Shown in pieces: positions 3,234 through 32,882 of a stretch of DNA of 64,000 nucleotides. The notes beneath the pieces were generated by a model. It did not search any database. It saw only the letters and a program-made list of their open reading frames with translations, and was not told where the DNA came from. The stretch is from Massalongia carnosa (lineage: Eukaryota), in assembly GCA_965645245.1 (NCBI GenBank), contig OZ287068.1, positions 3,224,001 to 3,288,000 of the forward strand. The letters are read 5' to 3'. Position numbers and translations under genes: made by a program. How positions within the stretch are numbered: the first letter of the stretch is position 1; the number at the start of each line of letters is the position of its first letter.

Positions 3234-5475
3234 GTAGATGAACTGTTAATTTAGTGTGAGGGTGAGGCTTAAGCTAGTCCTAATAAGCAGTAGAACTTTA
3301 CGAGGGGTCTGCCAGATGGGGTCTGTCTCGAATCTATCACTTCATCATCTTTTCATTGATTTATTTCATGGCTGCCTCGCACGTCCAGAATCCTATGCAG
3401 GCTCAAAACCAGTCTCGTCCTGGGCCTAATTCAAAGTCCACCAGTCTTCGCAGCTTGCATTCAGCCCGACTTCCCAAGAAAGCGTTTATGTAGCATGCCC
3501 GGTTGTTCCAATGCTAATGCTTCGATCATTAAACAATTTCGTCTGCATCGAGAGGTGGCCGATCATCCTACACTTCGCGATATTTCTGACGACGAATATG
3601 ATGCTCCTCGACATCGAGTATCCTACACCAGAGAGCAGAAACTAGCTGCTATTAGCTATGCTCAAACTACCTGGAAGTCTCAGAAGGATGGAAGTATGAA
3701 GCTTATCAGTAAATATGCTGCAGCCAACAATCTTGGAATTACTACCACGATGCTTAGAAAGTGGATTGAAAGTAGTTCGAGTATCGCCGCTCAACCTAAA
3801 GGTAAACGAAAAGACAGCAAAGCTATGGGTGTATGTAAAGAGCCTGAGCTTGAAAGGCGACTTTTGGAGTTATTCATGGAAGCCCGTAACACTGGACGTA
3901 AAATCAATAAACGTTAGTTTGTTCGTCAGGGTCGTCAGGTGTATGGTCAATTATATCCTCATCGAGTGACTAAGGCATCCGAAAGAATGACTGAGTATGC
4001 CGAGTTCAAATTCTTTACTGGTTGGTTTCGTGGATTCAGACGAAGGTGTGGTATAGCTGTCAGAAATCCTACCAAAAAAGCTCAGCAGGTGAATAATCAA
4101 ATGTTAATTTTTTTGATGATATTGAACTAATGGCATTCGGTTCATATCAGATTCCCGAGAACTTTCGCGATATTATCTAGTTGTGGTTACAATTGAATCG
4201 TCGCAATTCTCAACCGCTTTCGGGTCAAATTCCTTTGCATGGAGGAGGAAGATTTCGTCTTTGCGATATCGGCAATATGGATCAGATTCCTATTGCTTAC
4301 GAGTTCCTGCAGGGTCAATGCTACGATTTTAAAGGTGCCAAAACTGTATGGATTAAAACCCATCGGTCTGGATGGGACAAAAAACAAGCCACTTTGATGA
4401 TTTATGTTTCTGCGGACGGCATTAATCGATGCAAACCTCTTCTCATATTTAAAGGCCAAGATAGTACAAAATGTAGTCGAATCAAGAAGGAGATGACGCA
4501 TTACGACTCGGGAGTAGTAGTTCAATGGGATCTAAAGGCCTACTGCAATGGAAAAGTCATGTGTCGATGGCTAAAACAGCAGTATAAATACGCTACTCTG
4601 GGACTTTATAACGCTAATACACGGCGTTTTCTATCATTAGATGTGTTTGCGGAACAAAAGCCGATGAGGTAAATAACTGAGCATTTTGTTTTCAAGCTGC
4701 TCATGTTTGCTAACAAATTTTAGGTTAAACAAGCCTTTAAAGATTTAAACGTCATAGCATCATTTATACCTTCCGGCTGCACCGGGTTTATTCAAGTTCT
4801 AGACGTCGCCATTAATAAACCTTTGAAGAATCGAATATCGGAGCTAGCCGACATTCATTACGATGAGCACTTCGAGAAATGGAATAAAGGCTCATACACG
4901 GTGGGTGATCGACGAATTATGCTAACAAAATGGGTGGGACAAGCGTGGAGGGAAATGCACTTGGAGCATTCTTCTTTGATTTGTCAAACCTTTCGAAAGT
5001 TGGAATTGTCTCTTGCTGTAGACGGGTCGGAGGATGATAAGTTGTCAGTTAAAGACATACCAGGCATAACGGTAGGCGATTGGAAGCTTTCTACCGGTCA
5101 GGAGGATACACAAGAGGTAGAGGAGCCTGATACAACTGATAATAGTGAGGAGGTGCAGAAGGATGACGAAACTGAAGGCGTCATTGAAGTTAGGGAGTAT
5201 GTTTTGAGTGATGAATCTGGGGCCGTTTTGAATAGCGATACTGAGATGGATGTTGATGACGATTGATTTTCAGGGGATTTTTACTGATGCTTAGAGAATT
5301 TTTACTACTGTTTTGCACAAAATTGCCCTGTTGATGATTTGTCATCCCAAAATCTCGAAATTATGGTCTTATAGTGCAGGACCCCCCTTATGTTCAGAAA
5401 TAAGCAATTTGAACGGGGTCTTATATCCGGGAGGGTCTTACCCAAAAGCAGGGTCTTATTTGCCAGATAATACAG
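3234..5475 (+). mobile_element. pogo-family DNA transposon, left end missing
   Basis: Right end ..GGGTCTTA repeats..TTTGCCAGATAATACAG|TA; encloses a DDE_1 transposase remnant. Confidence 0.75.
3495..5266 (+). pseudogene. pogo/CENP-B-like DDE_1 transposase with introns and in-frame stops
   Basis: HTH region, GWFRGFRRR, IGNMDQIP, LSLDVF and QVLDVAINKPLK; stop at 3915-3917; likely introns at about 4089-4150 and 4669-4722. Confidence 0.85.
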
Positions 5476-6597: not shown

Positions 6598-9500
6598 TTA
6601 AATGGAGACCGGAATATTCGGCGCCATGGCCGAGGATTGCCGCCAGTCCGCCAGCTGCTTTCGTAACGTCCGTGAAAGGGAAGTCAGATCTTCCAACGCT
6701 TTCTGATACGATTCGCCGTCCTTTGGCTCACGGTTCAGGGTTTCGTGGAGAGCGTCGACCTGATCTTGACACGCGGCTTTTTGATACGGATCAAGATGAG
6801 GCAGCCTAGGCACCTGATCGGGCCTGATTAATGCTCGGTGGGCTCGCTGTGTCCCTGGATCATTGATCCGAGGAATGGCATTGCGAGAGCCTGGTAAAAT
6901 ATTATCGAACGAGATGTCTGGGAATAGCATAGAATCATCAGGTACACTGGGATCGGGTGCAGTCTTGCTCGCATCCTCGTAGTCACTTAACGCCCGCGTG
7001 GAACTTGGTGTGCTTGGGGGGTTGGGTGAGCGACTTGAATTACTCCGTGGACTGGACATGCTTCGTATACCTGGAAGACGATATGCGCTACCTTTGGAGT
7101 TTCGCACACTATTGTTTTCGTGATGCTTCATCGCTTGCCACAGACTAGGGAGTTGGTCTGGGCCCTTGTTCGATGAGGGAGCCGATTCGGTTTCCATATA
7201 ACTTTTGTTAGGTATTTCGATCTCTTTCATCCATCTAAGAAGAGTCTCGACGGAGGGCTTAGCTGGGAAGTGCGCTCGATGTAGATGCTTTGCGGCGTTA
7301 CCTTTATTATGATAGCGCTTGCCAGAAGAACAGGCTTGGCATCTGGCAAGAAACTTCTTGTCTACCGAAGCATCAACGCACACCCAGACTTTTCGGCTAA
7401 TTTTGTGAAAGCGTGTAATGTGTTTTCTTAGGGTATATTCGTTGAGCAGTCCATCGGGGAAGTTGGTGCAAAAATGGCAGAAGGCTCTTGGAGGCGCCCG
7501 TCTTTTTCTCGGCCTAACATTGATATCAAGGGCAGGGAAGGAGGCGTCTGCATCTAGAGTTTCCCTTGAGACCGTCGAGTGCTGCTGATTCATACCCAAC
7601 AAAGATTCTGGCGGTAACCCATAGGGCCCATAGGGGAACGAGGTATTAAATGGTTGTCCAAGATAACGGGCACATGAGTCTATGGTATTATTCGGGCCAG
7701 TTTCAGCTATTGGCATAGCAGCCGGAGTACCTTGGAGCTCCGGAGGGCTTTGGTCAGGTTGGGCTCGTAGCTGCGCTTTTATCTCCGCAGCATCCGCCAA
7801 GCTTGACAGGTCCTCTCTTCCCGTTCTCAATAGAAGTAAAAAGTACTGTTCAACCTCATCCGCGGTCTTAGTCTTTAGAAAATCTGAGATGCGCCTGAAA
7901 TCTCGTCCATACAGTTCTACAAGTTTTGGAAATTCTTTCTTCTCAATTTCAGACCAATACAGTGTTCTTTTACTCCTCCAAGCAGAACCAGATGCAGATA
8001 AACATGTTGCGTTGCCTTCGTTGGCTTCATTATCATTGTGTAAGTAATCATGATTGTCTTCAGATATGCCTCCACTCATGGAGTATCGGGAAGTAGGTGA
8101 GGACTTTGAATCGTAATTGGCAAAAATAGAATAACCGGCCAACGTTTTCTCAAGCTCTCGATCACAAATTGTCTCAAATCCGTCCATGTCGAGCGTTCCA
8201 TCCATATGTGAATATATTGAAAGTCCGCGAACATCGTCCTTGAAATCGGCCAAGGAATGATATCCCTGCTCTTCGATCTTGTCTTGCATCTCTTTCAACT
8301 TTGTTGACGACCTTTCCTGTCTCAAAGAAGTTTCGGCTGAGAAATCTGCTTCCTCCTTTCCTTCTGAACGCATAAAATTCTGCCAACTGCCTTCATTATT
8401 TGCTGCTGCGACCTCAGATTGAAGTCTGGCTAAAACTTGCCGGAAACTGCTTTGGAGAACCTTACGGCCTTGTTCATTCCAACATCGCGACGTACGAGCA
8501 GCGCCGAGCGATTTCCCAGAGGTAAAAACATTGTTCCTCCATGACGAAATGTCACCGGAATAGAGACTGGCTGGGATTTCAAAGTCTTCCATGGACATGT
8601 GATATCTTTTGGTGTGCTTTTCCAGATCCTTACGCGATCGAAATCCCCTTCCAGAGAAGTCACACTCAAGACATGGGAACGAGACAATATGAGTCACTTC
8701 ATGAACATTCCGATCGTGTATTGATCCAGAATGATAATTACAAGTATGAAAGCGGCAGAGAAAACCAAATCGATCAACAAACATAGCAAAGTCGTCCTTC
8801 CCAATATGAGCTGGAAGCTTCGATGAGTCCGTGGAAAGGAGCCGCTCGGTGACCTCTCGCAATCTGCAATCTATGAGACTTAAAAAAGTTTCATCCTTTT
8901 GGAGCTGCCATTGTTCCTGAGCATTTAAGCTTTCGAAGGTTGGTGCCATTTCGTCTAATTGGGATCTAAAATGAAGACAATGATTAACGAGGCTGAGGAG
9001 CTCTGGAAATGAAGCAAGTTCTTGAAATCCAGTTGCAATTCGCTGTGAGCTCTTCTCCGGAACAGGCTCTACGGAAGTAGTTGACCGGTTTTTCTTTACG
9101 TGGGAGAAAGCCTTAAGCGCGTCGACCAATATCATAGCCTGACTATCCAAGACGGGAATATTCTCCAGATAAGCCTTTACATGTGCGGCCCAGAAACGGT
9201 GGCTATAATCCTGAAGCCCATACCCTCCTTGTACAATACGTTTCTCGTGATCCAACTCAGTTGTGCCATCGGAAAACCGCGGCAAGATCGTCAAAGCAGA
9301 GGTCAAATTGGCGATGCAGGAGAATCCGATGCTAAAATGAGCTTGTGCGACATCAACGAATGGACCGCTCTGTGGGTGAACAAGGTATTCTTTTGCGGAG
9401 AAGTGTACCAAATCTAAGACACCGCTACTTGACTTCTCGATGATTGGTGCACATAACTCGAGAATATCCCTATTCATATCCTGACTCCTCGTTTTCTTAC

Positions 9501-11289
9501 TCAGAATTGTCTGACCAGGCCTCAACGCAAGCCCATCAGCAACATCATGTATTGTGACGGGTCGATATGCTGCACACACCCAAAAAAGCACTTTGAAAGC
9601 TCGATCTTTTAGAACTGGACTCAAAATGTAAATGCGTTTCAATATAAGCCCATAGGCTTCTTCCAACCCGTCAGGCAGCTGCTCTATTGCATTCTCAAAG
9701 TCCATTTCTGAACTTTGATGGAGAAGCATTGTGACTACAAGGCGGACCCAAAGGAACATTCCTTTCGCCTTTTCTCGCAGCCGCTGCTCTACGCGTTGAA
9801 AAAGGGACAATTCCATGTTTGGAAAACGAAGCTTCAGGTCTTCAACATTTCTTTCAATGTAAAGGTAGAGAGACTCGGTTGTCTTCCCATCAAGGGCAAT
9901 ATGAGTCTTGCACGGCATTGCTTTGTTTATGTGTATTTCATTCCGGCTGGAGACAAAGATTTTACACTTTTCACCAGCGTGTTTTTGGAGTTCTAGCAGA
10001 CTGGTAAGTAATTCCTTTTGAACCGAATGATCGCATTCATCAACGCCATCTAACACAATGCGCGTAGAATATAGAGAGGAAAAAATTTCTTTGAGCATTC
10101 GTTTCATAGCTGAGCTAGAATGGCCCGAGCCTTTCTGGAGATAGGCCTGGTGAATGAGCGGCGCCAAATCCAGGTTCTGTCGCACCACCTGAACTGTAAG
10201 CGTACGTAGAACTGAGCTACAACTGTCTGGTAGGGACGACTTTAGTCCGCAAAAGTAATACAAAGATGTCTGATCTTGACGAAGCTCAAGGTTTTCAACC
10301 AACAAGGAGCAAAGAAAACTTTTACCAGCCCCTGGAATGCCCGTCATCCAAATCAAACCGTTTCCGATTTCATCCTCAGTCCATGATAATATATGATCGT
10401 TTTCAAGAATCCAATTACATGTTCCAGGCTGACGTTTATCAGCCAGCTGGTGAAGATGTTCTTCTTGGCTATCTTCTGCTGCCGACAGCCATCGGAAGAC
10501 TTCCTGAACCATTCGCTGACGTCGCCGCTGCTCAAAATCTTCATCGTCAAGTTGCCGAGCATCTCTCATTCTTTTCATCTCGGAGAAATGTATAGCGGTA
10601 GCTTCCTTATCAAGCAGATCACAATGAGAGGCTAATTTTGCTAATATAGACTTGAAACGCCGTTCGAAGAGGCCCCAGTCAAAGGCGAACCACAGGTGCC
10701 AGGTTCTGCGACGGAAAAACTTGTACACGCGTTGGATAAACTCGAGTATATCGCTATAGATTAGAGCTAGAACTCGTTGAAAATCCTTACTCTCTCCAAA
10801 TACTGCCTTCAACTTGTCCACCGTCGGAATGGCTTCAGCAATGTCCTTGAACGCCTGAAGTATCTTGTCCATGACGTTTGAATACTGCCTTGCTAGCTAT
10901 CATGGAGCATCAGTCGTGACGTAGAGAAGACAAGGGTTAGAACATACAACAAGCATTAACTTGATTGGCCCCTGATAAGCTTTAGTTAGCTGCTAGCTAG
11001 AATCATCTTATCTCAAGCCGGTCGAGCCTACCCATACCCACGCCATTGGCGAAAACCCTTGACAAAAGGAGTCTATGACACCTGAATAGCTTTCCAGGAA
11101 CCGTAGAATTGGCTCTATTCTCCCCATGTAGCGGAGCGACAGCTGGGCACCTTGCTCGTGCTCAATTTTGCGGATGCCTTTCCATAAATCTTCCAGATTC
11201 GTGTCAACGAAGGTCCGGGCATCTTCGGGGTTGAGAGTTGCTTTCAATTGATCGATGGCCTTCACCACAATTGCTTGTGCAGTTGCCAT
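6598..11289 (-). CDS. NLR-like NACHT protein (about 1526 aa): N-terminal helical domain, NACHT, WHD, 2x C2H2, bromodomain-like segment, SANT/Myb, KLAP1-like zinc module
   Basis: Exons 11289-11032, 10971-10948 and 10896-6598 splice in frame (WVW|GPIKLMLV|LARQY). Walker A GIPGAGKS, Walker B IVLDGVDE, GMFLWV and LVHFSAKEYL are present. Confidence 0.9.
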
Positions 11290-11861
11290 AGGACTGTGCT
11301 GGGAGTAGATCGTTGAGGGGCTGAACAACGGATGACTTTGTTCTTCAGCATTGACTGATCGCTGATCATGTCAATCTTGAAACGTGCATTCTAATTGCAC
11401 CTGCACATATTGGCATAATAAAGAGTCGGTTTGCCTTGAGCCTTGAAAATGATGATACTTGAGTGCGCCTGAATGAGCCGCGTGGCGGTGCACAACCTGA
11501 AGCCTACTCGTATTCCAGTTATGTAAGTCAACCTCGGTTATCATCTGATCAGCTGCTGACAGGTGGGGGTGCTGACAGACGTGCGGGAATTAATCGAAGC
11601 GTGGTCCCACACAAACAACTAATCAAGATAACAACTACGATTTTTCAGCAATTCAAGAGTATTTCTCAGCATTATGAGCTCAGACTAAAGATTCGAAAGA
11701 CAGTGGTGATGAGAATGATCGAAAAGACTTAGTGCTCTATACTCGGTACTTTGAGCTCTGTGTACTCTGTAGCTCCGTAAGGGACTGTATTTTCCCCATA
11801 TATGTAGGTATAACTTTTACTCGTGCGGTAAGCCTGGACTACCTAAGATACTCTTGAGTGG

Positions 11862-13170
11862 CACGCGGGTGAAAAAAAAAACTCCCCCACCAAAACTTAC
11901 CCCTTTTCTTCCCCTTTTTCTTCCCCATCTTCTTCCTCATTCAAAATTTCAAATGCCATCCCACTACGATACACCTCAAAAGGCCAAGGTGCAGGGAGCT
12001 TATGAATTTCTTCTTGCAAATGGCATTTCCATCGATCCTCGAGAGATTTTTCAGCATTTTGGCATTCGAAGCGAGAGACATGGCTATAAGATCATTCGAA
12101 ACGGAGCATCTTCTAGAAGACATCATTCAACGCTGGTTGAGACACGCGATCGCAAATCAAAAGTCACGGAAGCACAAATACAGGAGGCAGATCACATTCT
12201 ACAAGATGAGGGGCTACAGCTGGAAGGAAAACGATACACATGGGAGCAATTGGCTATGGAGATTGGGGCCGACGTTGTCGGTCGTACAATGCACAATGTT
12301 ATGTCGGCTGCTCTAAGCTATGAGAAATGTCTGGCCTGCGTCAAGGGATGGCTGGCCGACCCACCTATGGCAAGACGGGTCGAATTTGCTCACATGATGC
12401 TGACCAGATATCCCAAACCGGAGCAATGGGATCGCGTACGATTTAGTGATGAGATTCATTTTGGATATGGGCCGGAAGGACAGTTACGAATCATTCGTCA
12501 GCCCGGAACACGATATCGTTGGGATTGCATACAGCATCGTGACCCGCCTCCTGAGAAAGATCGAAAACGAAAACATTGCTGGGCTGCAATTGGCTACAAT
12601 TTCAAGTCGGATATTATCTTTTATGACGTGCCGGGCAACAGCAATGGTAAAATGACTCATCAGGTGTATATTGAATCCGTTCTTGACCCCGTCGTCAAGC
12701 CCTGGCTGGAGCGTGGGGATGACTTCGTACTTGAAGAAGATGGAGACTCTGGTCATGGCACGGGCAAGATAAGAAATGCCGTCAAGAAATGGAAGGAAGA
12801 TCATCATTTAGAGCATTATTTCAATTGTGCCTCATCACCTGATTTGTCCCCTATAGAAAATTGCTGGCAGCCAGCGAAGCAGCATGTTCGAAAGTATCCT
12901 CATTGGGACGATGTCAGCTTGAAGCAGCTGATTAGGGATGGATGGGAACGGGTGACGCAGGAATTCATCAAAATGAAAGAGTTCGATCAATGCCCAAATG
13001 ATTGGAAGAGGTAATTAGGGCTGAGGGGGCGATGACTGGCTATTGAATAGAATGTATGTAGAATTTCAATGTTGAATGGGGAAGAAGATGGGGAAGAAAA
13101 AAGGGAAAGAAAAGGGTAAGTTTTGGTGGGGGAATTTCGGCTCAACTTGCCCTTTGTTTTCACCCGCGTG
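11862..13170 (+). mobile_element. Tc1/IS630-like DNA transposon with about 90-110 bp imperfect TIRs starting CACGCGGGTG
   Basis: Left end CACGCGGGTGAAAA..CCCCCACCAAAACTTACCC matches the reverse complement of the right end; flanks are AGTGG and AGCAG, not TA. Confidence 0.88.
11953..13046 (+). pseudogene. DDE_3 (DD38E) Tc1-like transposase with a C-terminal frameshift and stop
   Basis: RFSDE, LEEDGDSGHG and SPDLSPIENCW; the expected tail (NERVRSMPK*LEEVIRAEGAMTGY) lies in another frame after about 12970. Confidence 0.85.
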
Positions 13171-13455: not shown

Positions 13456-16434
13456 ATGGAGTATGCGTCCGCTCCCGATGAACTTGCTTTGATAGAGAGG
13501 CCAGGGAACCGAGCGATCACAGATGATGATCAGATGTGCTGTTTCGGAATGGTGAGCAAACTCAGTTGAACGTACTCTTTAATATGAGAATGAAGTCAGG
13601 GAGATTTCATGCCGCCCAATAGTGACCCGAGAATTTAGACAATATCATTGTGCCTTTGGCGGACCTAGCTTCGAGTGCAAGCTTTCAATTCATGAAGAAT
13701 TGTGCTGATTGTGTAGTCTAGGTGGTTGATCTTGTCGTGAAGCTTTCGTGCAATTACGAGATTCGGGAGACTCCTATTCATTTAGATGTTATGGAAGATT
13801 CAAGCACCCTCTTTGATCCGAAAGCAAAATCCAAATTCGGATCTCTTAACCTAAGGGCAACCAAAATTCTTGCAGTTCTACGCAAAGAACTCGTGATACA
13901 GATCTTTGCACATAGCTTGCCTAACCTGTCAAAGGATCTGCTAAAGGGAAGTATAACATCGAATGGCAAGACGAAACAGGCAAGGTCAAACCCATCCATT
14001 GGTTTGTACGTAATACTTTATGGACCTTCAGGTCTCGCTCAGCATGTTGGTGACTTTACAGCGAGGTGCAGTCTATACCTGCAACCTCCCTTGTGTTGCA
14101 ACCGAAATGTTCCTTATCAAAATCCACACTGTTTATCCCCCCTTACTTCTGAGAAAGTGTACACATATGAGCTGCTGAATGGAATCTTGGAAGAGGATTT
14201 AGTATCGACCATCGAAACATACTTGAATCCCATCGATCTCTTCGCTGACAGCACGGAGCAAGAAGCGATCCCGGATACGGAATCTCCAGAAGCTTTACGC
14301 ACAAAGCTGTATAAACACCAAAAGCAAGCACTAACATTCATGATGCAACGGGAAAGAGGTTGGGCAACAAAAAGTCATCAAAGAGATATCTGGAAGGAGG
14401 AGAATGACGCTCTCGGCCGGGTGGTATATTTCAATACTGTTAGTGGACAAAGGCAGTTTAGACCACCAAAACAATTTCGAGGCGGTCTACTCACCGACGC
14501 ACCTGGTTTGGGGAAGTCTCTTAGTATAATTGCCCTTATTGCATTAACTGTAGAAAATCGGGGGAACATTCAGCATGATGAGAGTTCATCGAATACAACT
14601 CTCTTAATTGTTCCAAAAACGTGTAAGCTATTTTTTATTTCAGGAACCCACAATAGCTGACTGTTTGCAGTAATCCAGACATGGAAAGATGAACTAGAAA
14701 AGTGAAGTATCCAGAATGAGTGATCTCATGTGCATATAAGTTGACGTTCCTCCCTAGGCATCTCAGCTCGTCCAATGTCATCAAGTTTTGCGTATACTAT
14801 GGAAAAGATAAGACGAAATATCTAGCAGATCTTTCACAATATACTCTAGTCATTACGACCTACTCTGTCGTCCGTTTGGACTGGAAAACAAATAGCTCAG
14901 AGCCCAGCCATCGCCTATTTTTACATAGCGTGCGATGGAAAAGGATCGTCCTGGACGAGGGTCTGCAGTCTTACTTAAAAAAAAAGTCTCCTGCTAATAT
15001 TTTTAGCGCACATAATTCGAGAGCCATCCAAATCTTTTGCACAATCCGTTTGCGCCCTTGAGGCTGAATGTCGATGGGCTGTGACTGGCACACCTATTCA
15101 AAACCGTCTGAGAGATCTATTTAGCTTGTTCAAATTTCTTCAATGCTCTCCATTTGATGATTTAAAGACGTTCAACACCCAAATCGCTCAAAAGTGGAAA
15201 GCAAGATCTGATCCAAATTGCGTGGCGAAACTGAAAACTCTTGTCAATTGCTTGTCATTACGACGGCCCAAAACCATTATTGAGCTACCACCCCGATGTG
15301 ACGTCACGAGTCAACTTGAATTCACCGAAGAGGAATGGCAATACTATGAAAAGGTCCAGGCTGTCACGAAGCGCACGATCGATGCAGCGACCGGGGAAAA
15401 CGGGGGGGCTACCTTTATCAACGCGCTCCAATGGGTCAATGAGCTTCGTCTAATATGCAACCATGGAGTTAAGAGCGGGAAGATAACGCAAGATTTGCCA
15501 AATATATCGGCCAATGTGTCAAGGTGGACCGAACAGGAAGCTCAAGCACGCTTCAATCATCTTGATCAAGTCGGGCTTGCCAAATGTTCTAATCCCGAAT
15601 GTTGCAACGATCTCTCCTCTGCGTTGTCCAGCGAGACTGATACAGAGCATGCTGACGAACCTCGATTGGAAGAGTCACTAGAACTCCTTTGTTCTTTATG
15701 TTTTCATGCTCGGTCAGGAAGGGCTGGGAAGTTTTTCAAAGTTTGCAACCACCTGCCGCGGCGTCCTCTCAATATCGTTGCGCTTGGTACCCAGCAAAAA
15801 CTCGCAGACGAGAAATCAACAACGGCTTCCTTGTTAGATTTCACTTCAGGGGGGATAATTCCCAGCAAAATCAAAAGGCTTGTGCAGGACTTATCCGAAA
15901 CGCCGGAAGATGTTAAAAGGTTTGGGTTGCGGCAACCACAGCTCCCTGGAATCGCTAACAAACCATCGCCTTAGTGTCGTCTTCTCCTCGTGGACAAAAA
16001 CCTTTGATATTATCCAACCCGTGCTAATGAACAAAGGTATCAGATGCGTGCGCCTTGACGGGACGCTATCCGCTTCAAGCCGTATCAGTGTGATAAGAGT
16101 ATTCCGTGCGAACCCCGGTATCAAAGTTCTCCTCGCCACGATCACCTGCGGGGGAATTGGACTCGACCTGACCGCTGCGTCAAGGGCGTATATAATGGAG
16201 CCTCAATGGAATCCCATGAGCGAGTCACAAGCGCTGGACCGCATCCACCGGCTAGGGCAGCTGAAAGAAGTCAAGACTATAAAATACGTTATGAAAAAAT
16301 CGTGGGAGGAGCAGGTGTTAAAATTGCAGTGTCGCAAACAGGAGTTGGCGGACCTGACTTTGAGTGGAGGGGTTATTAGCAGGGCCGAACTTACTCAGGG
16401 TCGGCTGCAATATTTGAAAGAACTTGTGGGCTAA
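13456..16434 (+). CDS. SNF2-family ATPase/helicase, Rad5/Rad16/HLTF-like, multi-exon
   Basis: Exon 1 13456-13551 (..CCFGM); LYKHQKQAL, GGLLTDAPGLGKS, VLDE|AH across an intron, TGTPIQN, a Cys-rich insert, VVFSSW, GLDLTAA and EPQWNP..QALDRIHRLGQ. Confidence 0.92.
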
Positions 16435-17573: not shown

Positions 17574-19739
17574 CCCTCTCGCTGTCATTCTAGCACCCCC
17601 CCCCCAAGCTAATCTATATTGGACTAGCTTCCGCACCGATGAGTCATCAGAACATTAGTTTTCTCTAGAGTGTTTGCGCGTTTGTTTACTTTTCAAAGAA
17701 TACTATTCGGTCATTCAATCAAAATAAATCACATAAATTACTATTCTTCTAGCTTCGGAATTGATATTATAAGTATGACGCTCAATGAAGAAGAAATCCC
17801 GAGTGTATCAGACAAATCTCCCATTTCAGCGAAGCAACATAAAATAAATCGCAAAAGAAGTGTTCGGGATATTTTAATCGACCTTCCCCCTATTTCCTCA
17901 AAATATACCCCCATTCGGGTTGAAAACAGGCCTTTTGTTCCGCTCGTTGAAAACGATTCTCGAAATCCTTTGGGATTATTTCGGTTATTTATAACAAGGC
18001 AGCATTGTCGTATCATCGCAAATCATACCAATATCAAGGCAAATAACTACATGGAAAGGGAGAAGGAGAACAATCATCGGGTTTGGACTGACACTACTGA
18101 CTCGGAAATTGAGGTTTTTTTGGGCATATTAATTCTTATGGGACTCGATCATCTACCTGCTACAGAGGATTATTGGAATCAACGTCCTGACAAACCAGTT
18201 ATCATGCCTATTCTGTCCGCGATGTCGCTTGGTCGATTTCAACAAATCAAACGATTTTTGAAAATCAATAATGGACAGACTGAGCCTATCGGACTTGGTC
18301 AAGGACCTGATTGGTGGAAGAAACTGGAACCGTTGGCTACTGATTTCCGAAAGACTTCATTGAAACATTGCAGACCAGGAAGTATGATATCTATAGATGA
18401 ACAGCTGGTGTTATTCAAGGGCCGTTCTCGACATACCTTGCAGATTACTACAAAAAGTGCCCATAAAGGATTTAAAATCTACAGTCTCTGTCAGGATAAT
18501 TATCTGTTGTCATTTATGTTTGCCTCGAAGAGTAGCAGAATAAGTGAATTGAAAACAGTCAGACAATTGGGATTTTTGCCAAAAGATAAACTAACTCCTA
18601 GTGCTTTGCTAGTGATTCAGTTATGTAAAGAACTTCCATCCTCACTGAATTATCATCTTTTCTGTGATAATTTCTTTACTAGTACGAAATTATTCAAGGC
18701 ACTTCGATCAATCGGAATAGCTGCCAGTGGAACTGCTAAAAAGGGCTCGGGCTTTCCAGAAGAATTGTTGGCCATACGGGACGTCACTTCAAAAGGAAAA
18801 GACTGGGGTCTTCAGGCCCATATGGTGGTCGACGATAAGGTGCTTTGTATGGGCTGGGTGGATAATAATGGTGTGCAGTATATGACCACCGGTCATTCTC
18901 CTCAGGACTTGTACGAAATGCACTATATAAATCCGCACAAGAGATATGGAATTCCCGAGACCTCTCTTCAACCTATTGTATCGTATTTCCCATCAACTCT
19001 GGCTCACTCCATTCCCTTGCTCAATCAAGAGGTTCAACGGCCCTTAGGATTACCGATACCAGCCCCAATCAAAGAATATAATCTTCATATGCGGGGATCG
19101 GATGGAAACGCTCAGCAACGAGCGATTTACTCATACAATCGTCGAACGGATCGTTACTGGTGGCCTTTGTTCATTTTTATTTTAGATGCAGCCGGATTGA
19201 ATGCCTATAAACTTTACTCGCTGAACTCTTTCGATTCCGAGGAGATAAAATTTACTCGTTCTGAATTTCTTCGTCGGATTGCTCTTGAACTGATATCAAA
19301 TCAAGCGGGCATCAGGCCCGGCTCATCAAAGATAAGCATCAATACCACGATTGATGCTTTAGTACCATCTCCCATTCATCATTACGTTCGTCTTGAAGGC
19401 AGAAAAAGATGTGTGCAATGTAACGCCGAGAAAAAACGACCTTCAAAGCGGAAGGGAGAGCCACTGGCTGAAATAAGTGTCGATGGGCGTAAAAGAAGGC
19501 GAAGGGGTGCTCAGACTATATGGGCTTGTGGAGGATGTAATCCAATCAGGCCCTGCTGTAAGAAAGCCAGCTGTTGGGAAGCTATTCATATGATAGGGGA
19601 CGAGTAAATAGGTATCTGATACTCCGTACAACTTCTTGTGAATAGGAATAACATTGATTGGTCAAAAGTTTAAGGTTTAGCGCTTTCTAACCAACAATGG
19701 TTTAGCTTGGGGGGGGGTGCTAGAATGACAGCGAGAGGG
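17574..19739 (+). mobile_element. piggyBac-like DNA transposon, copy A1
   Basis: TIR CCCTCTCGCTGTCATTCTAGCA(C)9-10AAGCTAA at both ends; both ends abut AT. Confidence 0.95.
17775..19607 (+). CDS. piggyBac-family DDD transposase with C-terminal cysteine-rich domain, intact
   Basis: SIDEQLVLFKGR, FCDNFFTS, EYNLHMRGSD, YWWPLF and CVQC..CGGC..CC..CWEAIH; first ATG at 17775. Confidence 0.93.
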   Translation: MTLNEEEIPSVSDKSPISAKQHKINRKRSVRDILIDLPPISSKYTPIRVENRPFVPLVENDSRNPLGLFRLFITRQHCRIIANHTNIKANNYMEREKENNHRVWTDTTDSEIEVFLGILILMGLDHLPATEDYWNQRPDKPVIMPILSAMSLGRFQQIKRFLKINNGQTEPIGLGQGPDWWKKLEPLATDFRKTSLKHCRPGSMISIDEQLVLFKGRSRHTLQITTKSAHKGFKIYSLCQDNYLLSFMFASKSSRISELKTVRQLGFLPKDKLTPSALLVIQLCKELPSSLNYHLFCDNFFTSTKLFKALRSIGIAASGTAKKGSGFPEELLAIRDVTSKGKDWGLQAHMVVDDKVLCMGWVDNNGVQYMTTGHSPQDLYEMHYINPHKRYGIPETSLQPIVSYFPSTLAHSIPLLNQEVQRPLGLPIPAPIKEYNLHMRGSDGNAQQRAIYSYNRRTDRYWWPLFIFILDAAGLNAYKLYSLNSFDSEEIKFTRSEFLRRIALELISNQAGIRPGSSKISINTTIDALVPSPIHHYVRLEGRKRCVQCNAEKKRPSKRKGEPLAEISVDGRKRRRRGAQTIWACGGCNPIRPCCKKASCWEAIHMIGDE

Positions 19740-19779: not shown

Positions 19780-21945
19780 CCCTCTCGCTGTCATTCTAGC
19801 ACCCCCCCCCAAGCTAAACCATTGTTGGTTAGAAAGCGCTAAACCTTAAACTTTTGACCAATCAATGTTATTCCTATTCACAAGAAGTTGTACGGAGTAT
19901 CAGATACCTATTTACTCGTCCCCTATCATATGAATAGCTTCCCAACAGCTGGCTTTCTTACAGCAGGGCCTGATTGGATTACATCCTCCACAAGCCCATA
20001 TAGTCTGAGCACCCCTTCGCCTTCTTTTACGCCCATCGACACTTATTTCAGCCAGTGGCTCTCCCTTCCGCTTTGAAGGTCGTTTTTTCTCGGCGTTACA
20101 TTGCACACATCTTTTTCTGCCTTCAAGACGAACGTAATGATGAATGGGAGATGGTACTAAAGCATCAATCGTGGTATTGATGCTTATCTTTGATGAGCCG
20201 GGCCTGATGCCCGCTTGATTTGATATCAGTTCAAGAGCAATCCGACGAAGAAATTCAGAACGAGTAAATTTTATCTCCTCGGAATCGAAAGAGTTCAGCG
20301 AGTAAAGTTTATAGGCATTCAATCCGGCTGCATCTAAAATAAAAATGAACAAAGGCCACCAGTAACGATCCGTTCGACGATTGTATGAGTAAATCGCTCG
20401 TTGCTGAGCGTTTCCATCCGATCCCCGCATATGAAGATTATATTCTTTGATTGGGGCTGGTATCGGTAATCCTAAGGGCCGTTGAACCTCTTGATTGAGC
20501 AAGGGAATGGAGTGAGCCAGAGTTGATGGGAAATACGATACAATAGGTTGAAGAGAGGTCTCGGGAATTCCATATCTCTTGTGCGGATTTATATAGTGCA
20601 TTTCGTACAAGTCCTGAGGAGAATGACCGGTGGTCATGTACTGCACACCATTATTATCCACCCAGCCCATACAAAGCACCTTATCGTCGACCACCATATG
20701 GGCCTGAAGACCCCAGTCTTTTCCTTTTGAAGTGACGTCCCGTATGGCCAACAATTCTTCTGGAAAGCCCGAGCCCTTTTTAGCAGTTCCACTGGCAGCT
20801 ATTCCGATTGATCGAAGTGCCTTGAATAATTTCGTACTAGTAAAGAAATTATCACAGAAAAGATGATAATTCAGTGAGGATGGAAGTTCTTTACATAACT
20901 GAATCACTAGCAAAGCACTAGGAGTTAGTTTATCTTTTGGCAAAAATCCCAATTGTCTGACTGTTTTCAATTCACTTATTCTGCTACTCTTCGAGGCAAA
21001 CATAAATGACAACAGATAATTATCCTGACAGAGACTGTAGATTTTAAATCCTTTATGGGCACTTTTTGTAGTAATCTGCAAGGTATGTCGAGAACGGCCC
21101 TTGAATAACACCAGCTGTTCATCTATAGATATCATACTTCCTGGTCTGCAATGTTTCAATGAAGTCTTTCGGAAATCAGTAGCCAACGGTTCCAGTTTCT
21201 TCCACCAATCAGGTCCTTGACCAAGTCCGATAGGCTCAGTCTGTCCATTATTGATTTTCAAAAATCGTTTGATTTGTTGAAATCGACCAAGCGACATCGC
21301 GGACAGAATAGGCATGATAACTGGTTTGTCAGGACGTTGATTCCAATAATCCTCTGTAGCAGGTAGATGATCGAGTCCCATAAGAATTAATATGCCCAAA
21401 AAAACCTCAATTTCCGAGTCAGTAGTGTCAGTCCAAACCCGATGATTGTTCTCCTTCTCCTTTTCCATGTAGTTATTTGCCTTGATATTGGTATGATTTG
21501 CGATGATACGACAATGCTGCCTTGTTATAAATAACCGAAATAATCCCAAAGGATTTCGAGAATCGTTTTCAACGAGCGGAACAAAAGGCCTGTTTTCAAC
21601 CCGAATGGGGGTATATTTTGAGGAAATAGGGGGAAGGTCGATTAAAATATCCCGAACACTTCTTTTGCGATTTATTTTATGTTGCTTCGCTGAAATGGGA
21701 GATTTGTCTGATACACTCGGGATTTCTTCTTCATTGAGCGTCATACTTATAATATCAATTCCGAAGCTAGAAGAATAGTAATTTATGTGATTTATTTTGA
21801 TTGAATGACCGAATAGTATTCTTTGAAAAGTAAACAAACGCGCAAACACTCTAGAGAAAACTAATGTTCTGATGACTCATCGGTGCGGAAGCTAGTCCAA
21901 TATAGATTAGCTTGGGAGGGGGGTGCTAGAATGACAGCGAGAGGG
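19780..21945 (-). mobile_element. piggyBac-like DNA transposon, copy A2 (inverted, near-identical to A1)
   Basis: Same TIRs; I found only three substitutions relative to A1. Confidence 0.95.
19912..21744 (-). CDS. piggyBac-family transposase, intact
   Basis: Identical to the A1 protein except one R/K change (YMERE vs YMEKE). Confidence 0.93.
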   Translation of the reverse strand: MTLNEEEIPSVSDKSPISAKQHKINRKRSVRDILIDLPPISSKYTPIRVENRPFVPLVENDSRNPLGLFRLFITRQHCRIIANHTNIKANNYMEKEKENNHRVWTDTTDSEIEVFLGILILMGLDHLPATEDYWNQRPDKPVIMPILSAMSLGRFQQIKRFLKINNGQTEPIGLGQGPDWWKKLEPLATDFRKTSLKHCRPGSMISIDEQLVLFKGRSRHTLQITTKSAHKGFKIYSLCQDNYLLSFMFASKSSRISELKTVRQLGFLPKDKLTPSALLVIQLCKELPSSLNYHLFCDNFFTSTKLFKALRSIGIAASGTAKKGSGFPEELLAIRDVTSKGKDWGLQAHMVVDDKVLCMGWVDNNGVQYMTTGHSPQDLYEMHYINPHKRYGIPETSLQPIVSYFPSTLAHSIPLLNQEVQRPLGLPIPAPIKEYNLHMRGSDGNAQQRAIYSYNRRTDRYWWPLFIFILDAAGLNAYKLYSLNSFDSEEIKFTRSEFLRRIALELISNQAGIRPGSSKISINTTIDALVPSPIHHYVRLEGRKRCVQCNAEKKRPSKRKGEPLAEISVDGRKRRRRGAQTIWACGGCNPIRPCCKKASCWEAIHMIGDE

Positions 21946-21947
21946 AT

Positions 21948-24295
21948 ATGAAATCCAATGATAAAAAATAGAAAATCATTCAAAAGGCAAAGAGAACAAA
22001 CTTTCGTCAAGAAATCAGTAAGGCCACCGAAACGCCTCAGGGACTATGGCGGCTAGCGAAATGGGCCAAAGACAAAAGTCATCAATCTAGAGAAGTATCC
22101 AAAATGCCGATGCTAAAATTCAATGACCAAGTAGCAGACACGTTTGACCAAAAAGCCGAAATGCTGAAAGGTGTCTTCTTTCCCGCACCACCACCGGCCG
22201 ACCTAAGCGACATAGAAGGATCCTTCTATCCTACATCGCCGCACTGCCCAATAATCATCACCAAGTCAGAAGTATCGACGGCCCTGAGTCGGCTCAAGTC
22301 CGATAAGGCACCGGGCCCAGACGGCATATCTAACAGAATACTCAAAGCATGCAGCGAAAAACTTGTCGAACTACTAACACCTCTGTTTCAGGCGTGCGTC
22401 ACACACTCGTACCACCCGCGGGCCTTCAAAATGGCAAACACAATAGCGCTGAAAAAAACAGGCTAAGGAGACTATACCACGCCGAAAGCCTACCGACCAA
22501 TTGCACTGCTCAACACGCTCAGTAAAGTTATGGAATCCATCATTGGATCGAAAATAACCTATCTAGCGGAAACACACCGGCTCCTACCCGACACACAGAT
22601 GGGAGCAAGGAAGGGCAGATCCACAGAGTCAGCACTGGAACTGCTAACTGAACAGGTTCACACGATTTGGGGACAGGGAAAAGACAAAGTAGCCACACTG
22701 CTAAGCATGGACGTCGCCGGCGCGTTCGATACGGTATCACATCAACGACTAACGCACAACCTACGGAAAAGAAAAATTCCAAAATGGATCACCGGCTGGT
22801 TAAACAGCTTTCTGAGCGATCGAAGCACCACTTTAGCAATAAATCGAAAAGTCACCGGGCGGTTTGCGGTAAGAACGGGTATCCCGCAGGGATCTCCCCT
22901 GTCATCCGTTCTTTACCTATTTTACAATGCAGATCTATTGGAAATATGTGATCGACCAGGCAAAAACACAAGTGCCATAGGATTCGTAGACGACGCAAAC
23001 ATTTTGGCATATGGAAAAAGCACTGAGGAAAAATGCAAAACTCTAGAGGCAATACACAGACAATGTGAGACGTGGGCTTCCCGGCACGGGTCCGTATTCG
23101 CTCCGACGAAGTACGAACTCATACACTTGTCCAGAAATCCCAAAAGATTCAACATGACTGCATCCATCAATATTGCTAGCACCGAAATTGAACCAAAAAC
23201 GGACATCAGAGCATTAGGCCTACAAATCGACACACCAAATTGAAATGGGGACCGCACGTTCGCAAAACGCAAGAGAAAATGGTCAAAAAACCCATGGCAT
23301 TGACAAAAATTTCCACATCAACCCGGGGTGCCACCTTCGCCAAGGCAAGGCAGGTTTACAGTGCCGTGGTGCGTCCGGCCATGACATATGGGTCAACCGT
23401 ATGGCACATGCCCAAAGAAGTCAAAAAGTCAAAAACGTCAACGAGCAAGCTCTCCGTCATGCAAAACAATTGCTTTCGCACCATAGCCGGTGCCTTTAAA
23501 GCCACTCCCATCTCAGTACCAGAAGCAGAGACATTCATAGCGCCCATAGACACGCATCTCGACATGCTACAAGCACAGACAAGGCACCGGCTCCGAGCCG
23601 GAGGCCAATTGAAGATCATCTCCTCCGCATGCAACAAAATAGCTGACAAACTTCGAGGCAAGGCAGGTCGCAAATGACTTCAAAAGCCCACCCCGGGAGA
23701 GCTGAAACACATCTGGGCCAAAAGCCTACTGATCGACTCAAAAATAGTTCAACCACCAAAGGCACACCCACCATGGTTCGAAGTCTACCCGGCGTGGCAC
23801 CGCGAAGCTACCGTTGCGGCAACGGCCCGACACAAGCAGATGCAAACAATCAAAGCACGACAAATGAAGGTCTGGAACGACTCGTGGTGCGCATATCAAA
23901 ATCGCGTCATCGAACCCTCCATAGCACAATCAGTCCCACTGAGCAAAAAACGGCTGAAAATACACACGCAGCTCAAAAAGGCAGAAAGCGCTCTAACAAC
24001 ACAAATCCGCACTGGCAAGATCGGGTTAGCTGACTTCCTCTACAAGCAACGGGTGCCCTCCGTCACCTCACCGGCCTGCTCATGTGGCCGGCACAGACAA
24101 ACTCCAGAACATGTAATCATGTTCTGCAGACTTATTGACAATAGAGAACAGATGTTTCGCGCCGCCGGCACGAGCGATTATCAGCAGCTGACCGAATCAT
24201 CAAAAACTCTGAAGATACTAACTGCTTGGCTAATGAAAAGAGGCTTATTGAATCAATTCTCACTAGCATCAACATTATTGTACAATCAACAATAG
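21948..24295 (+). pseudogene. LINE ORF2 reverse transcriptase plus C-terminal CCHC, frameshifted
   Basis: KAPGPDGI, YRPIALL, SMDVAGAFD, GIPQGSPLS, FVDD and CSCG..QTPEHVIMFC; frame breaks near 22463, 23238 and 23672. Confidence 0.9.
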
Positions 24296-27200
24296 TTGAA
24301 CCTTTCTTTCTTTCTTCTCTTTTCACAAGGCATTACAGTTCCCACACGTCTTTTACACTGCGTCTCCCGCCCGACGTCGACCCGTAGTTACATCGGACGG
24401 GTATCAAGGGATATGGTTTTTACACCTGTGAAAGGTTTTCCATGTAACATAACTTAGATAGCTTTGCTCGCATGGGCCGGCCTACGGCCCGTGTCATATC
24501 GGAGTATGAATACATCATCATCATGTACGCTAGGCATTGGGCTTTTGCTGGATAATCTTCTGGTAAGCCTCTTTGCTTTCATCGCGAGGGGGCGGAACTT
24601 TACACTTGTTTCGAGCTCTGGAAGGGGGTTAGCAAGTTGCAGGATGATTACGAGCGAGCGAGGCGTGTGGCATAGGTTATATCAAGGAAAGCGGCGGCGA
24701 GTGGAAATCATTGACAGGCAATGCTCAATTTGAGGGTTCAATTTATTGGTTGATTTATTCTTTTCGTTTCTGGCAGAATATTTTTTCCGTGCGACGTTTC
24801 CCACCACGAAAGCAGTCTGGTCACATCAACTCTTTTGTTCGGCGTGGTTATTGATAAGCTGCTCGCAAGTTGTTCAGCCACATACGAGCCCTATAGTTTT
24901 CTTGATATAGTCTGCTATGCGTTATCGATTGGAAATGCTTGAATTTTCTCTTCTGATTCTAGTGGAATTGAAACACGATGCTTAGACTTTATGCTTTCTT
25001 GTAGAACCGATTTTCAATTTTCATCATGGGTTTTCGGAGATGCAGATGTAGAAGTAGAATAAATCACAGTGGTCAAGGGTTTGCTTGAGGATTGAGAATT
25101 GACTCATCTGTTTTGATCCGCAACTGACCAGTGTCTATTCGTTTTTCTTTCATGATTGCTTCTCCTGTGAGACAAATATGTCACCTTCTGTTGATTCTCC
25201 GGTTTTCCTGTAAGGATGACACGGAGAGACCGGATCGTTTTATTACCAATATAAAACTCCTTGAGGCCAAATCGCTTTCCTACTTTCCGTGCTTATGGAA
25301 TCTTGATGACTGCTCTTCCTCGATTCAACCATCAGGTAGGCTGGTCTGATTTGGTTTTCGTCCAGGAACTCTGCTTGAACTGTTGCTTGAGCATAAGCTC
25401 ATGAGAATTACGGACGGTAAAGCGATATGGGGGAAAAGGCTATTGTAGCCAGCTTCAGTATGCGATGACTACCCGATAAATATTATAGCAAGAATCTGAA
25501 TGCAGAAACTGAGAAGGACTTTCGTATTCTATTTAACCTTGATTTCAAGATTTGTAGGAGTAAACCGACACCAACTTCATGAACCGTCTCTTCTTGGCTA
25601 TTCCTGTGTTGTAAATACAAGAGGCGTCTTACCATCGTCGTAGTTGAAGAGGTTGCATTATATAAGATAGACGACGAAGTATCCAAATCAGAGCAAGCCA
25701 GCGAAGAGACAAGACCTGAGAAGTGGCTAGTCAACCGGCGCGGAGCCTTGGGATTCTCAGCTGATGTCATGATATCATAGTCTTCTGTGATTGATCACCC
25801 CTAGCCAAACTCAAGTTGAGTAGAACCGTAATGTAGATAGTGGAGATTTTGAAGGCAAAAGATACACTAGTTATGAGCGTGTTTGCACACGGCGTATGGA
25901 CGACTTGCTAAAAACCTCCCATATTCTCTGGTGTTCGGCTGCCTGACCATGGCGCTTAGATGAAATGCGGGACGAGGCAAGGAGAGCGATGCAGTTAGAA
26001 AGCATGGCATCGCAAGGTGGTATCCGCGCAAAGCATGAATCTGTTGAAATTGTAGTTGATTGTAGTTGAAGATTTAAGACAAACGAAAGAGATGCACGGA
26101 GCCGTTTTGAAGGATTTTATTTCGCCGATCAGTTGCGCACCGACCTCTGATATGGTCATGACGGTCAATCTCGACAAGATTTTATTTCAGTATTCTTGAC
26201 CGGTTCACATGAGATGGATAAGTAGAGACAACCTACACCTTGGCGTTGACATTGTAGAAACTCGATACGTTGTTTCGGCTTGGCTTTGGGCTGGTTTTAG
26301 GCCAAAACCGGTGGCCTGGGTGAATTCGGCACGAGTTCATGCGATAATCCTCGGACTAGGTAACATCAAGGAGAGTAAAAGGAAAGTTTGACTTCATAAT
26401 GGTAAAAAGGATCATGGATGCCCAACGGCTTTCGTGTTAGATTGGGTGCGTTTAGGAACGTTGCGTGCTTACTACGTGGCTTCTTGAAAGTCGAGTTCCA
26501 GGCGAGAAAGCCAACGAGGTCACATGAAATCCGATCAAAGATCAAATGCAGAACTCAAGGGATAGGATGGTAGCGGTATGGCACTTACTGGGTGCCTCCT
26601 GTGGTGCCTCCTCGAATTATGATCACCCGATTAGGTAGTTAGTTTTGGTTAGACAACAAAGTCCTTATCTGCTGGTGCAAGCATAGGTACAGAGTAATTA
26701 GCAGTCTCTTTTACCCCCCCAAAGAGTTATACCTTCCAAATGCCATACCCGTTAAACGACAATGAGGATCAGAAAACTCCTGTTTGGCTCTTTGCCACGA
26801 AACATCATGAAAGATGACGGAGAAGGAGGGAAATTCCGGGGCGGCGGCCCGTTATGCCCATGTTTGGTAGTTCGTGCTCTAGACTCTATGCACCCCCCCC
26901 CCAAGCTAACCATTATTGGTTAAGAAGCGCTAAATCTTAATTATCTGACCAATCAATGTGAACCTGATTACCCCTATTTACAAAAAGTTCAAATTTATAG
27001 CTATATATCATTTACTCGTCCCAATTCATATGAATAGCTTCCCAACAATTGGCTTTTCTATAGCAGGGCCTGATTGGATGACATCCTCCACAAGCCCATA
27101 TAGTCTGAGCACCTCTTCGTCTTTTTATTCGCCCATTAACATCTCTTTCAGCCAGTGGCTGTCCCTTTCGCTTTGAAGGTCGTGTTTTGTTGACTTTACA

Positions 27201-32844: not shown

Positions 32845-32882
32845 TTTTGATATTTGATTGTGCTTGTTGGATCCGTCGTATC

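Follow-up and report, generated by a model that had tools for sequence, protein, structure and literature searches.

A conserved NACHT NTPase of lichen-forming fungi with nuclear-type binding modules where fungal NLRs normally carry repeats

Fungal proteins resembling NOD-like receptors (NLRs) are treated nearly always as receptors for cell death or allorecognition, whose repeat sensors evolve fast. A 64,000-nucleotide stretch of the Massalongia carnosa genome (assembly GCA_965645245.1, contig OZ287068.1, positions 3,224,001 to 3,288,000 of the forward strand; the whole of it is called the window below) encodes a protein in which the NACHT chassis of such receptors is instead joined to a constrained array of chromatin-type domains, and this raises the question of what kind of protein it is. 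A reading made from the letters alone (the sequence-only reading) had offered two answers: a transcription or chromatin factor gated by nucleoside triphosphate (NTP), or a fungal counterpart of the plant integrated-decoy NLRs, as in RRS1-WRKY. We find that the gene encodes a conserved signal transduction ATPase with numerous domains (STAND) of the NACHT type, found in lichen-forming fungi, with nuclear-type binding modules where fungal NLRs normally carry repeats.

The core of the gene is a stop-free frame of 1,432 codons at 6598-10896 on the minus strand, which forms exon 3 and encodes protein P0001. Amino acid (aa) positions below follow the numbering of this exon-3 protein and not that of the full-length product. 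All motifs listed in the sequence-only reading lie in this one uninterrupted exon, as had been claimed. Absent from that reading were a pair of 5' exons (11032-11289 and 10948-10971), DUF7708 at the N-terminus and, at the other end of the protein, the conserved tail (6601-6921). The gene model is as follows.

11032..11289, minus strand: exon 1, 86 codons, with the ATG at 11289-11287, the start of DUF7708, and GT at 11031
10972-11031 and 10897-10947, minus strand: introns flanking mini-exon 2, GT..AG, with CTAAC branch sites
10948..10971, minus strand: mini-exon 2 (GPIKLMLV, 8 codons), read from the sequence
6598..10896, minus strand: exon 3, 1,432 codons followed by the stop codon (6598-6600); 22 full-length relatives align with it collinearly

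Exon 1 matches the N-terminus annotated for P0005, the orthologue from Lobaria immixta, at 73% identity (63/86, E 4e-44), and annotated orthologues are uninterrupted at both predicted junctions (...WVWGPIK(L/M)ML(M/V)LARQ...). The three predicted exons combined therefore give a protein of about 1,526 aa. The modules follow one another in the order DUF7708, NACHT, winged helix with a helical region, two C2H2-type fingers, decayed bromodomain, SANT, basic DUF7896 double finger and conserved helical tail.

An array of this kind could arise if separate NACHT and zinc-finger/SANT genes had been read as one open reading frame (ORF), or if the gene were a decaying pseudogene. Three relatives without NACHT (P0048, P0050 and P0055), which start at the equivalent of about aa 590, agree with such an artefact. 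We nevertheless regard it as barely credible: the 1,432 codons form a single stop-free frame, the same continuous frame is present in the related metagenome loci L002, L003 and L006, curated models from several named species include every domain, and the ratio of nonsynonymous to synonymous substitution (dN/dS; Nei-Gojobori method, three close locus pairs, all from one clade) is 0.25-0.37 over the whole length. The three short relatives (834-838 aa), which begin with 'ML', are either true NACHT-less paralogues or ORFs cut by a common intron. A further irregular gene model, P0244 from Lambiella insularis, has a NACHT and Myb part continued by an inositol-pentakisphosphate 2-kinase domain (179.8 bits) and probably represents two adjacent genes fused by the gene caller.

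The N-terminal half contains the parts expected of a nucleotide switch.

10579..10896, minus strand: exon-3 part of DUF7708 (aa 1-106), Pfam 29.5 bits against a cut-off of 25 (aa 6-106)
9943..10425, minus strand: NACHT nucleotide-binding domain (NPHP3_N/NACHT, aa 158-318), NPHP3_N 118.7 bits and NACHT 28.5 bits
10318-10341, minus strand: Walker A motif GIPGAGKS (aa 186), intact
10036-10059, minus strand: Walker B motif IVLDGVDE (aa 280), intact
8797..9600, minus strand: winged helix (aa 433-507) and conserved helical region to aa 700, GPIID_WHD 19 bits, below the cut-off of 27

In full-length orthologues the DUF7708 profile is matched over positions 3-146. The Walker residues (G, G, K, S and D, G, D) are conserved at a level of at least 90% among 41 sequences. 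The winged-helix model, below its cut-off in the window protein, reaches 28.7 bits in orthologue P0083 and E ≤ 0.01 in 10 of 25 family members.

C-terminal repeats of the ANK, WD40, TPR and HEAT types were found neither in the window protein at E ≤ 1 nor in the 25 members at E ≤ 0.01. Their place is taken by the following features.

8599..8757, minus strand: two tandem C2H2-type zinc fingers (aa 714-766), putative, called from the ligand pattern
8140..8475, minus strand: apparently decayed bromodomain, four-helix bundle (aa 808-919), called from Pfam, family-profile and fold matches
7834..7959, minus strand: SANT/Myb-like three-helix domain (aa 980-1021), Pfam Myb_DNA-binding 28.2 bits against a cut-off of 24.4
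7492..7521, minus strand: basic cluster RPRKRRAPPR (aa 1126-1135), family consensus KRRPxPRA, R1132 invariant
7201..7491, minus strand: DUF7896 ('key lime pathogenicity'-type) double zinc finger (aa 1136-1232), Pfam DUF7896 (PF25438) 49.9 bits against a cut-off of 25
6601..6921, minus strand: family-specific conserved tail (aa 1326-1432) with a helical hairpin at its end, many invariant columns

The sequence-only reading had named four of these: two C2H2 fingers (about 8600-8760), a bromo-like stretch without the acetyl-lysine-binding Asn (about 8220-8305), a SANT repeat (about 7840-7960) and a KLAP1-like zinc module (about 7265-7485). These domain calls are borne out, with support that differs from module to module: Myb and DUF7896 are matched in 25/25 of the family members compared, and the fold matches to the helical parts are of medium strength.

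The SANT repeat passes the Pfam threshold in the window protein itself, and the Myb_DNA-binding model matches all 25 members (E ≤ 0.01). When the family profile was compared with solved structures, the best match was CoREST3 (E 6.4e-8), followed by EZH2, MTA1 and NCoR2. The SANT helices (aa 983-1024) are predicted with a local distance difference test score (pLDDT) of 95-97, and the fold superimposes on CoREST SANT2 with Z 7.6 and a root-mean-square deviation of 1.6 Å over 55 residues in VIA-align, with a Foldseek probability of 1.0.

The zinc module passes its Pfam cut-off as well, and DUF7896 is matched in 25/25 members. The Pfam match (aa 1168-1221, profile positions 2-57 of 83) covers the second Cys2-His2 unit only; all ligands of both units (C1140/C1143/H1159/H1164 and C1186/C1189/H1204/H1209) are invariant. 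Two stand-alone DUF7896 proteins are 37-39% identical to the module (E 3e-23 and 2e-29), share both Cys2-His2 units over aa 1136-1232 and lack the tail. The region aa 1126-1235 has an isoelectric point (pI) of 10.3, with 24 Lys and Arg against 8 Asp and Glu, and the basic cluster RPRKRRAPPR at its start is a possible nuclear localisation signal, judged by its composition. In the predicted model of aa 1125-1432 (mean pLDDT 77.8, predicted template modelling score 0.66) a confident DUF7896 part (pLDDT 93-98) and a confident terminal hairpin are separated by a disordered linker; in the tail, pLDDT is at least 95 at aa 1354-1414 and 89 at 1415-1424. VIA-align gave a best Z of 5.4 for this model (Mto2 dimerisation domain, archaeal-virus zinc finger), in rows that align mostly the tail, so that DUF7896 was barely tested by this comparison. 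Foldseek against the PDB returned no match at E ≤ 0.001 for this model or for that of aa 700-1035.

The connection of this module to KLAP1 is a lead given by an automatic cluster name: a look-alike cluster in the ESM-Atlas (score 0.89), with PF25438 in 100% of its members, is labelled 'Key lime pathogenicity protein family protein', and none of the 10 stand-alone DUF7896 clusters that we looked up is named 'KLAP1' or 'key lime'. KLAP1 is described as a putative transcription activator in the available text of PMC12735693. The DUF7896 module also occurs in other settings, following a protein kinase domain in P0195 (961 aa) and next to a Myb domain in the short protein P0107 (366 aa).

For the bromo-like part, the window protein alone does not qualify as a bromodomain protein, but the family does. 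The Pfam Bromodomain match in the window protein (aa 866-890, nucleotides ~8230-8310) scores 13.9 bits, below the cut-off of 21.7, which is passed by the orthologues P0212 (24.8 bits) and P0223 (24.9 bits); 12/25 members match at E ≤ 0.01. In the ORF fragment P0175 the finger pair is followed at the same place by a near-canonical bromodomain (63.9 bits), and a profile of 44 family sequences matches the TAF1 bromodomains in the PDB with E 2.7e-7. The AlphaFold2 model of aa 700-1035 (mean pLDDT 74) contains four helices here (aa 808-843, 852-875, 882-899 and 905-919; block mean pLDDT 63-96). When it was compared with 48,161 chains using VIA-align, about 28 of the 50 top rows were bromodomains (ASH1L, ZMYND11, ATAD2, TAF1) with Z 7.0-8.3, a range that calls for caution, since helical bundles commonly give Z values below about 13; Foldseek probabilities were 0.2-0.6. 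As the sequence-only reading had claimed, the acetyl-lysine Asn is absent. In an alignment with P0175, the window protein and the 8 other family rows shown have unrelated residues in place of the ZA loop and this Asn. P0175 itself has a near-canonical ZA loop and 'YH' where the 'YN' motif of bromodomains is expected. This part is the least conserved of the folded modules (mean pairwise identity 0.37). The most economical reading of these matches is that an ancestral bromodomain has decayed in place.

The finger pair is called C2H2-type from its ligands, and we treat the call as putative. Finger 1 (C714-x4-C719-x12-H732-x3-H736) has classical spacing and finger 2 (C742-x2-C745-x15-H761-x4-H766) a long x15 spacer, and all eight Cys/His ligands are invariant in alignments of the relatives (25/25 and 44/44). 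No Pfam C2H2 model matches the window protein at E ≤ 1, and 3/25 members give weak matches. Foldseek matched TFIIIA and KLF4 weakly (E 0.7, probability 0.44-0.54); the fingers lie in 10-residue blocks with pLDDT 72-92. Among solved structures, the nearest relatives of the modules in the family profile are chromatin or transcription proteins, namely CoREST, EZH2, MTA1, NCoR2, TAF1 and BRG1.

We then asked how widely this architecture is distributed and how strongly it is constrained. A word-based search with the C-terminal half as query returned 59 relatives, nearly all of 1,150-1,590 aa and with the same Pfam set, and the N-terminal half returned 243, of which nearly all of the best 120 carry DUF7896; when short proteins carrying the DUF7896 part were sought by a word-based search, 2 were returned. 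An exhaustive phmmer search of 1.84 billion representatives gave 49 matches at E ≤ 1e-30, 361 at E ≤ 1e-10 and 900 at E ≤ 1e-3. Among the 150 matches listed, more than 80 match the DUF7896 module only, and the weaker ones are mostly of 140-760 aa. Many relatives are ORF-level predictions from metagenomes. The family was found in 16 named species, all Lecanoromycetes: Lobaria, Pseudocyphellaria, Sticta, Bacidia, two Xylographa, Fulgogasparrea, two Teloschistes, Thelotrema, Wetmoreana, Lambiella, Protoblastenia, Villophora, Cornicularia and Dirinaria. The lineage was verified for 4 of the 16, and those four span both Lecanoromycetes subclasses.

We used FastTree for a phylogeny of 49 rows, namely the window, the 16 named species and 32 chosen unnamed relatives; P0204, a second model from the same Teloschistes species, was excluded. 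The named rows cluster by order and the window falls in the Peltigerales clade with support of 100; four long branches were flagged. Mean pairwise identity among 22 full-length rows is 0.67 for DUF7708, 0.57 for the nucleotide-binding domain (NBD) and 0.54 for the helical region in the N-terminal half, and 0.63 for the finger pair, 0.58 for SANT, 0.55 for DUF7896 and 0.51 for the tail among the C-terminal modules, with 0.22-0.34 in the linkers. The dN/dS values are 0.27-0.35 in the NBD, 0.11-0.27 in the finger pair, 0.15-0.27 in SANT, 0-0.24 in DUF7896, 0.19-0.39 in the bromo-like part and 0.30-0.52 in the tail, as compared with 0.37-1.5 in the linkers. The folded C-terminal modules are thus under constraint on a par with the NTPase, with purifying selection on each; in the three pairs of this one clade there is no sign of diversifying selection in the C-terminal modules (dN/dS 0-0.52 in folded modules).

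One feature of these loci stands apart. The NACHT ORFs of L002, L003 and L006 are mosaic in synonymous divergence (dS): over the 5' two-thirds L002 lies near L006 (0-0.09), but from DUF7896 to the end it lies near L003 (0.03-0.04), which suggests inter-lineage recombination or chimeric assembly.

The genomic neighborhood of the gene is conserved as well. The features upstream of it are the following.

13722..16434, plus strand: SNF2-family helicase gene (SNF2-rel_dom exons and Helicase_C), head-to-head with the NACHT gene
11773..13014, plus strand: Tc1/mariner-type transposase ORF (DDE_3, 413 codons) lying between the NACHT and SNF2 genes, in their divergent promoter region

A divergent SNF2 neighbor is also present in the metagenome loci L002, L003/L004 and L006. 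The NACHT protein of the L002, L003 and L006 loci is about 46% identical to that of the window, and the first large SNF2 exon shows 46% identity (E 2e-91) between the window and a related locus. As the L003 protein (P0264) lies in the Teloschistales clade of the tree, the NACHT-SNF2 pairing is kept between the window and a Teloschistales-clade lineage. The gap between the two genes measures 963 bp in L003 and 2,432 bp in the window, where it contains the transposase ORF; this insertion may affect the expression of both genes in this genome. A different kind of variant is found at L007:856-3252 (plus strand), where a single 798-codon ORF retains the helical region and the finger pair and then continues with a Med15-type KIX domain (KIX_2, 42.9 bits against a cut-off of 25.6) and long poly-Q tracts in place of the bromo-SANT-DUF7896 part; its NACHT part has been removed by the contig end.

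These results bear on the second answer of the sequence-only reading, that the C-terminal modules are copies of host regulators (Snt1/NCoR-like, KLAP1-like) displayed as baits for effectors of mycoparasites or symbionts. In its favor, the DUF7896 double finger shows 37-39% identity to stand-alone fungal proteins, and the stand-alone relatives, including the more than 80 listed matches noted above, indicate that modules of the array have free-living counterparts. The tail and the finger pair, in contrast, have no free-living counterpart among the matches examined. Four more features tell against an integrated decoy: a canonical repeat sensor has not been kept, the head-to-head neighbor is not a helper NLR but the SNF2 gene in the window, L002, L003 and L006 alike, the array is ancient and class-wide rather than patchy, and dN/dS is well below 1 in every folded module. 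We therefore consider a plant-style decoy quite improbable. Of the two answers, the decoy fails most of the features tested, while the NTP-gated transcription or chromatin factor fits the conservation, the selection, the SNF2 neighbor and the KIX variant.

We accordingly favor, with roughly even confidence, the reading that the protein is a nucleotide-gated transcription or chromatin regulator, one that would reside in the nucleus, bind DNA or histones and be switched by nucleotide. It is favored because of the orthologue-like descent, the purifying selection and the fixed SNF2 partner, which are unlike the variable sensors of fungal NLRs. Further support comes from the pI of the DUF7896 part and the RKRR just before it, from the KIX swap at L007 and from a layout that is class-wide in Lecanoromycetes. 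Under this model, the NACHT and helical module would hold the protein closed in a resting ADP state, and a trigger would lead to nucleotide exchange and oligomerisation. Oligomerisation would cluster several DNA- or chromatin-binding arrays, allowing cooperative binding and recruitment at target loci.

Several observations weigh against the regulator reading. SANT domains are often protein rather than DNA binders, the pocket of the bromodomain is lost, and the C2H2 fingers lack significant Pfam or Foldseek support. The versions at L002 and L005, from records with one accession prefix, are 91.5% identical, so that there may be more than one copy per genome. The NACHT domain is of the ordinary fungal HET-E/TLP1-like kind, and the N-terminal domain type is shared with other NLRs, since DUF7708 also heads a canonical NB-ARC-TPR NLR within the window; in NLR grammar, DUF7708 would therefore likely be the output and the C-terminus the sensor. 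The authors of a survey of Sordariales NLRs, in the portions available, regard C-terminal zinc fingers as sensor domains (PMC12258605, PLoS Genet 2025).

These points lead to the main rival, a surveillance NLR in which the finger/SANT/DUF7896 array would sense nucleic acid or a chromatin-derived or foreign nuclear cue (from a mycovirus, a transposon or a partner-derived factor) and free NACHT for oligomerisation, with DUF7708 as output. Besides the DUF7708 shared with the NB-ARC-DUF7779-TPR gene, it draws on the likeness of the NACHT half to ordinary fungal NLR clusters (one is auto-named het-e-1, a lead only), on the 52 Sordariales NLRs whose C-terminal zinc fingers are proposed sensors in the same survey, and on the transposon-rich region. 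We see it as possible but rather unlikely. The sensors of fungal NLRs are highly variable and positively selected, according to the available part of PMC9815663, while the modules here are constrained like the NTPase; the family follows species taxonomy like a housekeeping orthologue and keeps its SNF2 neighbor. The KIX variant carries a co-activator module and no obvious sensor, and DUF7708 has no known effector activity: the literature that we searched held nothing on DUF7708, nor on DUF7896.

A stronger form of the regulator reading can be put forward tentatively, and we doubt it more than we believe it: that this is the first fungal NACHT transcription or chromatin regulator of the CIITA or MalT kind, kept since the split of the Lecanoromycetes subclasses and wired to an SNF2 remodeller, which would convert a recognition or metabolic cue into chromatin reprogramming. 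If true, a NACHT-dependent step from cue to chromatin might act in thallus development or partner recognition, and the output swaps among relatives (an intact bromodomain; KIX with poly-Q) would define a modular family of NACHT-gated nuclear factors.

The rest of the window contains unrelated genes and mobile elements. The canonical fungal NLR referred to above occupies 45954-48622 on the minus strand; its ORF at 47276-48622 carries DUF7708 (28.4 bits), NB-ARC (70.7 bits) and DUF7779, and the adjoining ORF at 45954-46871 on the same strand carries the TPR_12/TPR_10 repeats of the same NLR. A glutamate synthase (GOGAT) gene with two large exons lies at 36602-42754 on the plus strand and is an ordinary housekeeping gene. 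Transposons are abundant in the first third of the window. A piggyBac-type element is represented by two transposase ORFs (DDE_Tnp_1_7; 17643-19607, plus strand, and 19912-21876, minus strand), inverted and back to back, which each encode 654 aa with 653/654 identical; it looks recently active, and further fragments lie at 27012-28007 and 33591-34298. Other remains of mobile elements are an endonuclease of the LINE (long interspersed nuclear element) type (Exo_endo_phos_2; 1-825), pieces of a pogo-type DDE_1 (4181-5266) and a reverse transcriptase (RVT_1; 22467-23243), and the stretch 1-2426 was also assigned to such remains. The 1,419-codon ORF at 28621-32880 (minus strand) was considered as a paralogue of the NACHT gene and rejected: it is the uninterrupted polyprotein (gag, integrase, RVT_2) of a copia-type long terminal repeat retrotransposon.

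How the protein relates to known systems can be considered first for other fungal NLRs. The Sordariales survey, as far as its text and supplements were available, reports zinc fingers in 57 of 4,613 NLRs, 52 of them C-terminal and 34 of the C2H2 type, and one NLR that combines T-NACHT with Myb_DNA-binding, schves-1_g6232 (PMC12258605). Like the T-NACHT NLRs of that survey, the lichen protein has zinc fingers in the place of repeats after a NACHT of the HET-E/TLP1 type. It is unlike them in that the Sordariales cases are rare and interpreted as sensors or decoys, while the lichen family is class-wide, orthologue-like and constrained. The files of PMC12258605 that we searched, which include part of the supplements, do not contain the word 'bromodomain' and describe no combined finger-bromo-SANT-DUF7896 array. 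In the available part of a study of Xanthoria, NLRs were defined by their repeat domains, and the lichen NACHT family would therefore not have been counted there. Searches of the literature for NACHT with bromodomain, SANT, zinc finger or Lecanoromycetes gave nothing pertinent by title or passage, and the architecture is undescribed there. C-terminal zinc fingers in fungal NLRs are thus already in print, while no description of the combined array was found in the literature searched.

Single modules have relatives elsewhere. The stand-alone DUF7896 proteins (the 'key lime pathogenicity protein' family; KLAP1 of Colletotrichum acutatum) have the double-finger module at aa 1136-1232 in common with the lichen protein, but are 140-760 aa long and possess neither NACHT nor the tail. 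The SANT domains of CoREST, NCoR, MTA1 and EZH2 and the bromodomains of TAF1 are the best solved relatives by profile and fold, which does not imply a partner of the HDAC or LSD1 kind. The family offers a test set for DUF7896 function and illustrates the decay of a bromodomain in place, next to modules that remain constrained.

As for whole architectures, RRS1-WRKY resembles the lichen protein as an NLR with a transcription-factor-type domain. Plant integrated-domain NLRs retain their leucine-rich repeats (LRRs), work with a paired helper NLR and are lineage-specific, and none of these traits holds in the lichen protein where tested. Closer in possible working are the animal NACHT co-activators CIITA and NLRC5, which use a NACHT NTPase for transcription control rather than cell death. 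They may serve as a working analogue of the lichen protein, but differ in having LRRs, activation domains, no DNA-binding domain and a NACHT of another subclass; the analogy implies no homology outside the NTPase. In the bacterial STAND NTPases MalT, the LAL family and AfsR, oligomerisation gates an attached DNA-binding domain; these are prokaryotic proteins with a helix-turn-helix or SARP output and a TPR/SUPR sensor, and lack C2H2, SANT and bromodomain modules. If the lichen family does regulate genes, it would be a candidate class-specific regulator for lichen biology, and STAND-gated transcription would extend from bacteria (MalT/LAL) and vertebrates (CIITA) to fungi.

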